UHGV virus genome: UHGV-2157276
Source of the DNA: a virus
DNA length: 11,904 nucleotides
Direction: 5' to 3' (one strand)
How positions within the stretch are numbered: the first letter of the stretch is position 1; every line of letters begins with the position of its first letter. The notes beneath the pieces are model-generated. The model did no database searches, was not told the origin of the DNA, and saw only the letters and a program-made list of their open reading frames with translations. Made by a program: the position numbers and the translations under genes. Below, one piece after another: positions 3,456-11,904 of this stretch.

Positions 3456-3839
3456 ATGCGTGATATTCAGATGGTTCTTGAGCGTTGGGGAGCGTGGGCG
3501 GCTAATAATCATGAAGATGTGACCTGGTCGTCCATTGCCGCCGGTTTTAAGGGATTAATTACTTCAAAAGTAAAATCTCGCCCGCAATGTTGTGACGATG
3601 ACGCGATGATCATTTGCGGGTGCATGGCCCGTCTGAAAAAGAACAACAGCGATTTGCACGATTTATTAGTAGATTATTATGTAGTCGGTATGACATTCAT
3701 GTCACTGGCAGGTAAGCATTGCTGCTCTGATGGTTATATCGGGAAAAGGTTACAGAAGGCTGAGGGTATAATTGAAGGGATGTTAATGGCATTAGATATC
3801 CGGTTAGAGATGGATATCGTTGTTAATAACTCTAATTAA
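3456..3839 (+). CDS. quuD: Late-gene antiterminator Q (QuuD-type), 127 aa
   Basis: ATG at 3456 preceded by GGAG (3445-3448, 7-nt spacer). Protein [24 protein letters not shown]...[11 protein letters not shown]. The ORF track starts at an upstream TTG (3441), which is less likely. Confidence 0.85.
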
Positions 3840-3849
3840 TATGCCAATT

Positions 3850-3891
3850 GTTTACTAAAAATTATTAAAAATGGGGCGTTGAGACGCCCCC
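3850..3891 (-). terminator. Intrinsic terminator for the minus-strand porin transcript
   Basis: Stem GGGGCGT / loop TGAG / ACGCCCC at 3873-3890; on the minus strand it is followed by ATTTTTAATAATTTTT. Confidence 0.5.
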
Positions 3892-3978
3892 AAAAATAAA
3901 GGGTAATATATAACAGAAGGTTTATATAGTTAGAAGCAAGGTTGTGCTCCTAAAGGAAGTGGCTTGAGGGAGCCACTT

Positions 3979-4012
3979 ATATGTTGGGGAGGCAAAGCCT
4001 CCCGCAACATAT
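3979..4012. terminator. Long stem-loop between Q and the nmpC 3' end; possible plus-strand terminator or mRNA-stabilising hairpin
   Basis: ATATGTTG-GGGAGGC / loop AAA / GCCTCCC-g-CAACATAT, a 15-bp stem with one bulge, followed on the plus strand by CTTTTAG. A second hairpin AAGTGGCT-tgaggg-AGCCACTT lies at 3957-3978. Confidence 0.4.
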
Positions 4013-4027
4013 CTTTTAGTAATCAAA

Positions 4028-5110
4028 TTAGAACTGGTAAACCATACCTACAGCAACGATATCATCGGTAGCAACGCCAGATGCTTTCGTGAAATCGCTC
4101 TTATCAATCAGGTTGATTTTGTAATCAACAAAAGTGGACATATTTTTGTTGAAGTAATAGGTTGCACCTACATCAATATATTCAACCAGGTCCTGATCAC
4201 CCCACGCACCCAAGTCTTTTCCTTTAGATTGCAGGTAAGCAACGGACGGACGCAGACCGAAGTCGAACTGATATTGTGCAACTACTTCGAAGTTTTGTGC
4301 TTTGTTGGCAATATGGTTATTACCAAAAACAGTCATGTTCTGGGTTTCAGAATAGGTGGTAGCCAGATAGATGTTGTTCGCATCATATTTCAGACCAGCT
4401 GCCCATACTTCAGCATTTTGACCAGATGCATTCAGGCTGTTGTTACCGTAGATAACCTGATTATTAGTGCGGTCAGATTTAGCATAGGTTGCACCTACAC
4501 CGAATCCTTCATACTCATAAGTAGTGGAGAAACCGAAACCATCACCATTAGCTTCAGTTACGTCAGTGCGGTCATTTTTACCCTGATACTGAGCAGCAAA
4601 GTTCAGACCATCAACCAGACCAAAGAAGTCATTGTTACGATAAGTTGCAACACCTGTGGTGCGACCAGTCATGAATACATCTGTTTGGGTCCAGGTATCG
4701 CCACCGAATTCTGGCAGAACGTCGGTCCATGCACCAATATCGTATGCTACACCGTAGTTACGGCCATAATCGATGGAGCCGTAGTCACCGAATTTCAGGC
4801 CAGCGAAGGCAAGACGGGTTTTATCTTTGGAGGAACCTTGAGATTCAGCGCGGTTGCCTTTGAATTCATATTCCCACTGACCGAAACCAGTCAGTTGATC
4901 GTTGATTTGGGTTTCACCTTTGAAGCCAAGACGGGCATAAGTAGTATCACCATCATCTGCATCATTAGAGGAGAAGTAGTGCTTAGCATTAACTTTCCCG
5001 TACAGATCCAGCTTGTTACTGTCTTTATTATAAATTTCAGCTGCCTGAGCAGACATCGCCATCAGTACTGATGCAGCTACAGCAGAAATTGCCACTGTTA
5101 ATTTTTTCAT
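4028..5110 (-). CDS. nmpC: General-diffusion porin of the OmpC/PhoE/NmpC family, apparently intact (360 aa)
   Basis: Start ATG at 5108-5110 gives [23 protein letters not shown] signal peptide then [16 protein letters not shown]; C-terminus ends VAVGMVYQF with the terminal Phe typical of porins. The ORF track's upstream start (5185) adds 25 non-porin residues. No IS interruption. Confidence 0.9.
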
Positions 5111-5140
5111 CGTGAGCCCTTTTTTTGAACTATTATTAAA

Positions 5141-5170
5141 AAATGATGTCACTGCAAATGATGTCACTGC
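5141..5170. repeat. Perfect tandem direct repeat, 2 x 15 bp (AAATGATGTCACTGC), 31-60 nt upstream of the nmpC start codon
   Basis: Read directly: 5141-5155 and 5156-5170 are identical. Confidence 0.85.
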
Positions 5171-5356
5171 GCGATAAATATTCATCTAATCAATGTGATT
5201 ATTTCAAGATGTAAGTTTTGGTTTCTCATTTGATTTGTGAAGTAGATCTCTATTTTTATCTGAACTTTTTCTATCGAATCCTATTCATGGCTCTTGGCTG
5301 AATAAAAATAAATCTATTAGCCAATTTATATTAATGGCTGTTATTTATAAGTGCTC

Positions 5357-5362
5357 TATAAT
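5357..5362 (+). promoter_or_regulatory. Candidate -10 hexamer of the late promoter (pR'-like)
   Basis: Perfect TATAAT on the plus strand about 190 nt upstream of the terminator at 5552-5584, similar spacing to lambda pR'/tR' (about 194-nt 6S RNA). No convincing -35 found. Confidence 0.3.
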
Positions 5363-5551
5363 TTGAAGATTCAATTTAAACCAGCTAAAAATAACGCTGG
5401 AAATTATTTGTTGGTTATTTGTTGAGATTTGCTTATGTATTTGTAGTGGTGTTTTCAATACTCGGTAGCATTCTCGCAAATATCATTTAGTGGTTTACGT
5501 ACGTAAAAAATTGGTTATGCTGTTAAGAGTGGTTACTTCGTCACACAGCTT

Positions 5552-5584
5552 AAACCCGCCGTCGAGCGGGTTTTTCCATTTTTT
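5552..5584 (+). terminator. Intrinsic terminator upstream of the lysis genes (tR'-like)
   Basis: AAACCCGC / loop CGTCGA / GCGGGTTT followed by TTTTTCCATTTTTT on the plus strand. Confidence 0.6.
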
Positions 5585-9148: not shown

Positions 9149-9694
9149 ATGGAAGTCAACAAAAAGCAGCTGGCTGACATTTTCGGTGCGAGTATCCGTA
9201 CCATTCAGAACTGGCAGGAACAGGGAATGCCCGTTCTGCGAGGCGGTGGCAAGGGTAATGAGGTGCTTTATGACTCTGCCGCCGTCATAAAATGGTATGC
9301 CGAAAGGGATGCTGAAATTGAGAACGAAAAGCTGCGCCGGGAGGTTGAAGAACTGCGGCAGGCCAGCGAGGCAGATCTCCAGCCAGGGACTATTGAGTAC
9401 GAACGCCATCGACTTACGCGTGCGCAGGCCGACGCACAGGAGCTGAAAAATGCCAGAGACTCCGCTGAAGTGGTGGAAACCGCATTCTGTACTTTCGTGC
9501 TGTCGCGGATCGCAGGTGAAATTGCCAGTATTCTCGACGGGATCCCCCTGTCGGTGCAGCGGCGTTTTCCGGAACTGGAAAACCGACATGTTGATTTCCT
9601 GAAACGGGATATCATCAAAGCCATGAACAAAGCAGCCGCGCTGGATGAACTGATACCGGGGTTGCTGAGTGAATATATCGAACAGTCAGGTTAA
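9149..9694 (+). CDS. nu1: Terminase small subunit Nu1, 181 aa, full length
   Basis: MEVNKKQLADIFGASIRTIQNWQEQGMPVLRGGGKGNEVLYDSAAVIKWYAERDAEIENEKLRR...; N-terminal winged-HTH. Overlaps the A start by 26 nt as in lambda. Confidence 0.95.
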   Translation: MEVNKKQLADIFGASIRTIQNWQEQGMPVLRGGGKGNEVLYDSAAVIKWYAERDAEIENEKLRREVEELRQASEADLQPGTIEYERHRLTRAQADAQELKNARDSAEVVETAFCTFVLSRIAGEIASILDGIPLSVQRRFPELENRHVDFLKRDIIKAMNKAAALDELIPGLLSEYIEQSG

Positions 9695-10730
9695 CAGGCT
9701 GCGGCATTTTGTCCGCGCCGGGCTTCGCTCACTGTTCAGGCCGGAGCCACAGACCGCCGTTGAATGGGCGGATGCTAATTACTATCTCCCGAAAGAATCC
9801 GCATACCAGGAAGGGCGCTGGGAAACACTGCCCTTTCAGCGGGCCATCATGAATGCGATGGGCAGCGACTACATCCGCGAGGTGAATGTGGTGAAGTCTG
9901 CCCGTGTTGGTTATTCCAAAATGCTGTTGGGTGTTTATGCCTACTTCATAGAGCATAAGCAGCGCAACACACTTATCTGGTTGCCGACGGATGGTGATGC
10001 CGAGAACTTTATGAAAACCCACGTTGAGCCGACCATCCGCGATATTCCGTTGCTGCTGGCGCTGGCTCCGTGGTATGGCAAAAAGCACCGGGATAACACG
10101 CTCACCATGAAGCGTTTTTCCAATGGTCGTGGCTTCTGGTGCCTGGGCGGTAAAGCGGCAAAAAACTACCGTGAAAAGTCGGTGGATGTGGCGGGTTATG
10201 ATGAACTTGCTGCCTTTGATGAGGATATTGAACAGGAAGGCTCTCCGACGTTCCTTGGCGACAAACGTATTGAAGGCTCGGTCTGGCCAAAGTCCATCCG
10301 TGGCTCCACCCCCAAAGTGAGAGGCACCTGCCAGATTGAGCGTGCAGCCAGTGAATCCCCGCATTTTATGCGTTTTCATGTTGCCTGTCCGCACTGCGGG
10401 GAGGAGCAGTACCTTAAATTTGGCGATAAAGAGACGTCGTTTGGCCTCAAATGGACGCCGGATGATCCCTCCAGCGTGTTTTATCTCTGCGAACATAATG
10501 CCTGCGTCATCCGCCAGCAGGAACTGGACTTCACTGATGCCCGTTATATCTGCGAAAAGACCGGGATCTGGACCCGTGATGGCATTCTCTGGTTTTCGTC
10601 ATCCGGTGAAGAGATTGAGCCGCCGGACAGCGTGACCTTTCACATCTGGACGGCGTACAGCCCGTTCACCACCTGGGTGCAGATTGTCAAAGACTGGATG
10701 AAAACGAAAGGGGATACCTTCTGCCCGTAA
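9669..10730 (+). pseudogene. A: Terminase large subunit gpA, N-terminal 350 of about 641 codons, truncated at a deletion junction
   Basis: MNISNSQVNRLRHFVRAGLRSLF...[14 protein letters not shown] then 3 unrelated codons (FCP) and stop. Walker-A-like KSARVGYSK is present; the C-terminal nuclease half is absent. Confidence 0.85.
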
Positions 10731-11904
10731 GGTGAATGGTAAGGCGCTTTCAGCGGATATAACACTGACGCCGAAAGATATTGGTACGCTTAACTCAACA
10801 ACAATGTCATTCAGCGGTGGTGCTGGTTGGTTCAAATTAGCAACGGTAACCATGCCACAGGCGAGTTCTGTTGTTTCAATTACGTTGATTGGTGGCGCGG
10901 GATTTAACGTGGGGTCACCTCAACAGGCAGGTATATCTGAACTTGTTTTGCGTGCAGGTAATGGTAATCCGAAGGGGATTACTGGTGCTTTATGGCAGCG
11001 CACATCGACAGGGTTTACAAATTTTGCCTGGGTCAATACATCTGGTGATACTTACGATATTTACGTTGCAATCGGAAATTATGCGACTGGTGTAAATATT
11101 CAATGGGATTATACCAGTAATGCCAGCGTGACGATTCATACGTCACCAGCATATTCTGCTAATAAGCCGGAAGGGTTAACGGACGGTACAGTTTATTCAC
11201 TCTATACGCCATCAGAGCAGTTTTATCCGCCTGGCGCACCAATCCCGTGGCCATCAGATACCGTTCCGTCTGGCTATGCCCTGATGCAGGGGCAGACTTT
11301 TGACAAATCTGCATACCCGAAACTTGCAGCCGCTTATCCGTCAGCCGTGATCCCTGATATGCGTGGCTGGACGATTAAGGGCAAACCCGCCAGTGGTCGT
11401 GCCGTATTGTCTCAGGAACAGGACGGCATTAAATCGCACACCCACAGCGCCAGCGCATCCAGTACGGATTTGGGGACGAAAAACACATCGTCGTTTGATT
11501 ACGGAACCAAATCCACGAATAACACCGGGGCGCATACCCATAGTATTAGCGGGACTGCAAATAGTGCCGGTGCGCACCAACACAAGAGTTCCGGTGCATT
11601 TGGTGGCACGAACACGAGCATTTTCCCTAATGGTTATACCGCGATTTCAAATCTAAGCGCGGGGATTATGAGCACAACAAGCGGTAGTGGCCAGACTCGT
11701 AATGCAGGGAAGACATCATCAGATGGTGCTCATACCCACTCGCTGTCCGGCACTGCTGCAAGCGCAGGCGCACATGCACATACTGTCGGTATTGGTGCTC
11801 ATACGCACTCCGTTGCGATTGGCTCACACGGACACACCATCACCGTTAACGCTGCTGGTAACGCGGAAAACACCGTCAAAAACATCGCATTTAACTATAT
11901 TGTG
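10720..11904 (+). pseudogene. stf: Side tail fibre (Stf-type) gene fragment, 5'-truncated, open to the end of the window
   Basis: Frame 1 is open from 10702 to 11904 and is not in the ORF track because it has no stop. Hand translation ends ...[60 protein letters not shown], the His-x-His repeat C-terminal region of lambda-family Stf. Possible internal starts are GTG 10732 and ATG 10804. Confidence 0.75.

Follow-up and report, generated by a model that had tools for sequence, protein, structure and literature searches.

An intact porin gene between Q and the lysis genes

Virus genome UHGV-2157276 was analyzed as a single stretch of 11,904 nucleotides (nt), hereafter called the window. A gene for an NmpC/Lc-type general porin (4028-5110, minus strand; stop codon at 4028-4030) is found there between the plus-strand genes for the late antiterminator Q and the holin, as indicated by the list of open reading frames (ORFs) and by Pfam matches. 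The porin gene is part of an accessory cassette ('moron') of about 1.7 kb, roughly 3789-5492, which separates the main part of the Q gene from the late promoter of Q. Aside from the porin gene, the cassette contains a new C-terminus for Q, a 3′ region that by its sequence corresponds to the small RNA IpeX, and an A/T-rich region upstream of the porin gene. Both the porin (NmpC/Lc) and the 3′ RNA (IpeX) are already known and were described decades ago. One possibly new point is a match between IpeX and the ribosome-binding site of ompC.

The porin has 360 amino acids. Its first 23 residues are followed by AEIYNK, and its C-terminal end is MVYQF, with phenylalanine as the last residue. The match to the Porin_1 profile (PF00267) extends over the full length of the profile (positions 1-337 of 337), with an E value of 3e-153 and a score of 510.6 bits against a cut-off of 23.7. 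The signal peptide was assigned by identity, as the N-terminus is the same as the 23-residue sig_peptide annotated for the Lc porin of phage PA-2 (protein 2, J02580). Examination of the porin ORF for frameshifts and internal stops revealed none. A preliminary description of the window had proposed a complete OmpC/PhoE-family porin with a signal peptide and a C-terminal phenylalanine, encoded on the minus strand between Q and the lysis genes, and all of these traits are borne out by the profile match, the Lc signal peptide, the YQF end and the ORF positions. The same description had taken nmpC of Escherichia coli K-12 to be disrupted by an insertion element and had considered the copy in the window uninterrupted. 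Indeed, the annotation of MG1655 lists nmpC (b0553) as a pseudogene, with IS5B inserted some 55 nt ahead of the stop codon, whereas the window copy is continuous between 4069 and 4086, where the K-12 insertion maps. A longer ORF of 385 amino acids, starting at an upstream ATG (5185, minus strand), was considered and rejected: that ATG shares the porin frame with only a part of the relatives, since the length of an A-run differs, and position 5110 was therefore taken as the real start.

Comparison with Lc of PA-2 yielded 90% protein identity, with 36 substitutions and two short indels. The differences cluster at residues 181-235 and 263-268, and these variable segments are likely to be surface loops. 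The best chromosomal porins, found in Salmonella, Citrobacter and Enterobacter, are 76-79% identical to the porin of the window. As judged from these comparisons, the porin is of the phage-borne NmpC/Lc type and not of the chromosomal OmpD or OmpC type, and it would form a 16-stranded trimeric beta-barrel in the outer membrane.

The 3′ untranslated region of the porin gene corresponds to IpeX

The 3′ untranslated region (UTR) of the porin gene comprises about 164 nt on the minus strand (3864-4027), from the first base past the stop codon to the end of a terminator U-run. Three hairpins are present in both the minimum free energy and the centroid structures: hairpin 1 (3979-4012), with 15 base pairs, one bulge and a UUU loop; hairpin 2 (3957-3978), with 8 base pairs and a 6-nt loop; and hairpin 3 (3930-3953), with 9 base pairs. 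They are followed by a weak hairpin made of A and U only (3907-3928), by a mostly unpaired A/U-rich stretch, AACCUUCUGUUAUAUAUUACCCUUUA (3897-3922), and by an intrinsic terminator detected both by a terminator scan and in the fold (3873-3890), whose hairpin, GGGGCGU-CUCA-ACGCCCC, precedes AUUUUUAAUAAUUUUU on the porin strand. Hairpins 1 and 2 and the terminator hairpin, the last with its U-tract, had been listed in the preliminary description, and their coordinates were recovered exactly by the fold and the scan; hairpin 3 was absent from that list. The 191-nt 3′ region folds with an energy of −67.4 kcal/mol, compared with −33.9 ± 3.8 for 200 dinucleotide shuffles (z = −8.8). None of the shuffles was as good, and the structure is therefore well beyond chance.

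IpeX is described in a review as a 167-nt RNA that is cut from the porin transcript, and published accounts for DLP12 (qsr′, the prophage that harbors nmpC in K-12) and PA-2 report that it lowers OmpC and OmpF. The 3′ UTR of the window shows 4 differences from that of DLP12 and is 97.3% identical to that of the PA-2 lc record. In E. albertii the identity is 87%, and homology ends at 3864, precisely at the end of the terminator U-run. Because of its location from stop codon to terminator, its near-identity to the DLP12 and PA-2 regions and its length of about 164 nt, which fits the published 167 nt, we identify the hairpin-rich 3′ UTR by sequence as the IpeX region (Castillo-Keller et al. 2006), from which it differs in nothing structural. 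Processing to an RNA of about 167 nt and lowering of OmpC and OmpF would be expected of the window copy as well. A search of the whole window against Rfam 15 (E ≤ 1) gave no match; since Rfam has no apparent IpeX model, the missing match is no argument against membership.

The terminator stem is invariant across relatives, with variation confined to the loop. The 4A7 and PhiR63_2 variants have lost two of the pairs of hairpin 2, while hairpin 1 shows one compensatory change (C-G to U-A) in E. albertii. The unpaired stretch 3897-3922 is invariant in all eight aligned relatives, including E. albertii, and is better conserved than the stems. When hairpin 1 is read on the plus strand, it is followed by CUUUUAG, and might weakly terminate transcripts that emerge from Q; the terminator scan of the window did not call it.

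One may consider that the hairpins are only structural, that is, that they serve to end and stabilize the porin transcript and to shield the converging Q and porin genes from each other, with no role in trans for the window copy. The strong terminator and the very stable stems fit this proposal, as does the possibility that hairpin 1, followed by CUUUU on the plus strand, might weakly stop transcripts coming from Q. The absence of an Rfam family goes in the same direction, and so does the lack of a covariation signal, which also counts against our own interpretation: the only compensatory pair is matched by 180 of 500 shuffles, in a region with little sequence variation. However, the near-identity to DLP12 and PA-2 concerns a region with published repression of OmpC and OmpF, the best-conserved part is the unpaired stretch rather than the stems, and the two initiation regions that this stretch matches are precisely those of the reported targets, as described below. 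Hence, a purely structural role seems quite unlikely.

The putative late promoter is located beyond the porin gene

The Q protein of the window matches PF06530 (E = 4e-53), with a distant match to Q21 structures, and shows 78% identity to the Q protein of phage 933W. In 933W (Y10775), the Q gene overlaps a segment annotated as 'promoter, homologous to pR′', and tR′ comes next. A single homologue of the 933W pR′-tR′ segment is found in the window, at 5493-5575, with 77% identity over 83 nt, terminator included; SfII and K-12 have the segment conserved as well. The window ceases to be homologous to 933W at 3788, within the Q gene, and becomes so again at 5493. The putative late promoter pR′ (5494-5521, plus strand), located by homology to the annotated 933W segment, consists of TTTACG and TATGCT separated by a 16-nt spacer. 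The late-operon terminator tR′, AAACCCGCCGUCGAGCGGGUUU followed by a U-run (5552-5580, plus strand), is homologous to tR′ of 933W and was called by the terminator scan at 5552-5573.

In this arrangement pR′ is 1.65 kb downstream of the stop codon of Q, with the porin cassette in between, and the same is true of all the porin-carrying relatives. Hence, a Q gene of the PF06530 family and a promoter and terminator upstream of the lysis genes are present as in other phages of this kind, but the promoter neither follows the Q gene directly nor overlaps it as in 933W. The late transcript would start near 5528, pass tR′ and enter the holin gene, diverging from the porin gene.

At first sight, the gene order Q, porin on the minus strand, holin suggests a different picture, and the preliminary description had indeed taken late-operon transcription to be antisense to the porin gene; under such a model, transcripts that depend on Q would cross the porin gene and interfere with it. 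This view is contradicted by the pR′-tR′ homologue, which lies beyond the porin start, so that late transcription runs away from the porin gene; in addition, the scan called nothing promoter-like between 3840 and 4030. We therefore consider antisense late transcription highly improbable. Transcription antisense to the porin gene could occur only by read-through from upstream of Q, and the early region is deleted in the window copy. Our assignment of pR′ has a weak side too: its hexamers are our own reading of the alignment, match the consensus at only 8 of 12 positions, and fall below the threshold of the consensus promoter scan, which did not call pR′.

Altogether, the best explanation of the locus, and one that we hold with considerable confidence, is a moron cassette made of an intact NmpC/Lc porin gene and an IpeX 3′ UTR, in which the late operon is not involved. 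The map is thereby corrected, as the cassette lies between Q and Q's late promoter, outside the late transcript. It would therefore be an accessory unit expressed in the lysogen. In this respect it is unlike the stx accessory genes of 933W, which are downstream of tR′ and belong to the Q-dependent late transcript; the window cassette is upstream of pR′, independent of it and transcribed in the opposite direction.

Two additional observations concern the surroundings of pR′. The 1986 PA-2 lc record annotates a distal 'CRP binding site' (J02580, 1067-1087) that maps to 5526-5550 of the window, within a block that is shared with 933W and SfII, where it belongs to the initially transcribed part of the late region (GAGTGGTTAC...CACACAG). 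Q loading or pausing is a more likely reason than CRP for the conservation of 5526-5550. In the SfII locus that was compared (421-1443 and 1501-1687), a similar pR′-tR′ segment is present just upstream of the holin gene, preceded by two minus-strand genes with no assigned function. The slot upstream of pR′ may thus hold accessory genes in other phages too.

The porin upstream region and the expression of the porin gene

The region upstream of the porin gene (5111-5492, minus strand) was singled out by its composition as a putative promoter region. A block at about 5233-5253 corresponds, as mapped via alignment, to a CRP site annotated in the PA-2 lc record, and this proximal block is conserved as far as E. 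albertii. Closer to the gene, 31-60 nt upstream of the porin ATG, the leader harbors a perfect tandem duplication of the 15-bp motif GCAGTGACATCATTT (porin strand), at 5141-5155 and 5156-5170. The motif is present as a single copy in the five aligned relatives and in 78 of 85 fetched loci, and as a double copy in none of the 85; a query spanning the junction of the duplication found no match in 5,426 complete E. coli genomes. The leader of DLP12 lacks the extra repeat. Because the repeated motif GCAGUGACAU resembles GCAGUGGCAU of the ompC leader and GGCAGUGGCA of the ompF leader, the repeat is probably within the transcribed leader.

Intactness is necessary for expression but not sufficient, and the window copy may be expressed. 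The competing view is that the gene is intact but silent, producing neither porin nor IpeX under ordinary conditions, and that the cassette is a passenger of a decaying prophage. Several facts favor silence and thereby weigh against our interpretation: the upstream 380 bp have only 27-31% G+C, the consensus sigma-70 scan called no porin promoter, and the title of Prilipov et al. 1998 applies the word 'quiescent' to the nmpC gene of E. coli B. Furthermore, the prophage is defective, lacking about 5.9 kb of early genes compared with its closest relative and carrying a truncated terminase gene, and the CRP sites annotated in PA-2 imply that expression is conditional. Against silence, a review reports that PA-2 lysogens express Lc, and ipeX RNA is reported to have been measured by reverse transcription quantitative PCR in 20 clinical isolates. 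Conservation of the proximal block that includes the CRP-site homologue points in the same direction. On balance, a silent copy is possible but somewhat doubtful.

Predicted pairing of IpeX with ompC and ompF

The mostly unpaired stretch of IpeX is the predicted seed for sites in both ompC and ompF. Its segment AACCUUCUGUUAUAU (3922-3908) is predicted to pair with positions −21 to −7 of ompC through 15 contiguous pairs, one of them G-U, across the Shine-Dalgarno sequence GAGGG, and 6 more pairs are predicted in addition. The longest run of pure Watson-Crick pairs is 10 nt. No longer complementarity to the ompC leader (−85 to +60) exists on either strand of the whole window than this 15-nt run, and 5,365 of the 5,426 genomes carry the leader itself with an identity of at least 99%.

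Three calculations were used to evaluate the match. Accessibility-corrected energies were −14.4 kcal/mol for IpeX-ompC and −12.0 kcal/mol for IpeX-ompF, with the same IpeX stretch involved in both. Under the same calculation, the validated controls MicC-ompC and MicF-ompF gave −17.4 and −13.0 kcal/mol, respectively, and the known sites were recovered by both, while IpeX gave +0.7 kcal/mol with ompA and +9.4 kcal/mol with its own porin leader. In a second calculation, the unpaired region was tested against the ompC initiation window: the energy obtained was −26.7 kcal/mol, compared with −13.6 ± 2.8 for dinucleotide shuffles, and none of 2,000 shuffles reached it (z = −4.6). The match with ompF was weaker, as 85 of 2,000 shuffles reached the observed energy, and that with ompA was not significant in the same shuffle test. 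Finally, when 28 real initiation regions were ranked, ompC came first and ompF second; the 26 controls averaged −11.2 ± 2.9.

The predicted site on ompC (−29 to −6) overlaps the MicC site (−31 to −14), and both RNAs use GUUAUAU; likewise, the predicted site on ompF overlaps the MicF site, with similar computed energies. Beyond a short seed, IpeX shows no sequence homology to either MicC or MicF. It is also unlike them in being the 3′ UTR of a phage porin mRNA and not a separate divergent gene, and in that its pairing is a prediction.

These computations support the possibility that IpeX is a conventional antisense RNA, whose stretch 3897-3922 would bind to the Shine-Dalgarno regions of ompC and ompF but not to ompA or to the leader of its own porin gene. 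We regard the chances of this interpretation as evenly balanced, as a number of points weigh against it. One is statistical: when whole-RNA shuffles are used, the local duplex energy is unexceptional (z = −0.2) and 15 of 2,000 shuffles have a run at least as long. The strong pairing statistic depends on restriction to the unpaired region, which was defined after seeing the fold; it was with accessibility-corrected energies and unpaired-region tests that we replaced the local duplex energy of the whole RNA. Duplex folding of full-length IpeX with ompC and ompF was uninformative, since the MicF-ompF positive control was not significant either, and the method was dropped. The abstract by Castillo-Keller, Vuong and Misra, the primary description of IpeX from 2006, is said to report no complementarity and an effect on ompC that is independent of Hfq, and the site predicted here may have been examined and discarded in that work. 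Lastly, a review states that IpeX does not act by base pairing, a statement at odds with the complementarity to the initiation regions of ompC and ompF computed here.

The latter points invite the alternative that IpeX acts without base pairing, for instance by titrating a protein or at a step other than translation initiation, and that the complementarity is coincidental. Along with the published statement and the 2006 abstract, the weakness of the whole-RNA statistics is what such an alternative would predict. It accounts less well for the failure of all 2,000 shuffles of the accessible region to match the ompC duplex, for the first and second ranks of ompC and ompF among the 28 initiation regions, and for energies that resemble those of the validated MicC and MicF pairs. 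Moreover, blastn with its default word size of 11 needs one nucleotide more than the 10-nt Watson-Crick run offers, so that a similarity search in 2006 could have missed the match, and a long duplex is compatible with Hfq independence. A mechanism without pairing thus remains a sound contender, though we place its chances a little under even.

Read on the plus strand, 3904-3926 (ATATAACAGAAGGTTTATA) is identical at 17 of 19 positions to the ompC leader around the Shine-Dalgarno sequence (ATATAACAGAGGGTTAATA). Because of this identity, the IpeX seed is suggested to have arisen by inverted capture of a porin leader. An origin of this kind has been proposed for micF too.

Distribution of the cassette and prophage context

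The segment comprising Q, porin and holin is present, at a coverage of at least 80%, in 2,371 of the 5,426 complete E. coli genomes and in 36 sequenced phages, among them ev243, PhiR68_2, 4A7, mEp332 and a 434 recombinant. A porin gene on the opposite strand between Q and holin is found in K-12, 434B, A14, 4A7, PhiR29_1 and PhiR63_2. The 3′ UTR element and the porin gene co-occur, as the 36 phages with the element all hold the porin too, and the element was not found downstream of the chromosomal OmpD-like porins of Salmonella, Citrobacter and Enterobacter. Hence, the cassette is common and appears to travel as a unit. As a genome feature it is ordinary, given that nearly half of the complete E. 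coli genomes carry it.

The window represents one end of a lambda-like prophage that has decayed and that is located at the lambda attachment site adjoining ybhC. Genes were assigned from the ORF list and Pfam matches. The minus strand encodes a ybhC-type pectinesterase (1-1284) and, next to it, a lambda-type integrase (1419-2489); xis comes after these. Between xis and Q are rusA and ylcG, both on the plus strand. The antiterminator gene Q (3456-3839, plus strand) is of the QuuD type and belongs to the PF06530 family, which includes Q21. Past the cassette, a P21-type holin gene (5668/5713-5928, plus strand) is followed by genes for lysozyme and Rz/Rz1, by bor on the minus strand, by a DUF1398 gene, by nu1 and by the truncated terminase gene. 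The large-subunit terminase ORF (9669-10730) stops early, and only short ORFs are found in 10731-11904; in the region matching the latter, the closest genomes annotate 'phage tail protein' fragments, a further sign of prophage decay.

The closest complete genomes, E. coli A14 and five others, are 99.8% identical and carry the same prophage at the same site. Relatives of the A14 type (A14, NCTC9041 and others) hold an additional 5.9 kb or so in the interval from xis to the 3′ end of ybcO, and the window copy is therefore further deleted. The deletion site is at about 2686-2841 of the window, with the right breakpoint near 2841. The missing DNA includes a TraR-like gene, fragments of recT and ren, ybcN and ninE, and its loss leaves a prophage copy without the early control region upstream of Q.

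The prophage is thus not DLP12 itself, as it adjoins ybhC and has a lambda-type integrase. Nevertheless, the position of the porin gene is that of nmpC between quuD and essD of DLP12, in the same orientation and with flanks that are 95-98% identical.

Proposed mechanism and significance

Transcription of the cassette from its own A/T-rich promoter region would provide the cell with a phage porin. IpeX, released from the porin transcript and protected by its stable 5′ hairpins and its terminator, would lower OmpC and OmpF, so that the phage porin would replace the host porins. Published work has demonstrated such a porin swap for DLP12 and PA-2, and for the window copy we infer it from the identity of the sequences. 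An inference that we add is that the IpeX stretch between hairpin 3 and the terminator might pair with the translation-initiation regions of ompC and ompF, as MicC and MicF do. If so, one transcript would supply a new porin and silence the old ones by occlusion of their ribosome-binding sites.

If true, pairing would overturn the description of IpeX as an RNA with no base pairing and a novel mechanism, which has stood since 2006. The specific 15-bp match to ompC makes the mechanism of IpeX testable by a handful of point mutations.

A search of the literature on receptor use by PA-2 and on superinfection exclusion by NmpC found nothing usable. The receptor of PA-2 is OmpC, and a porin swap would therefore exclude related phages. 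If the match is real, the phage would swap the porin of the cell surface by means of a single mRNA, a capacity that would be relevant to receptor exclusion and to the porin-dependent entry of antibiotics.

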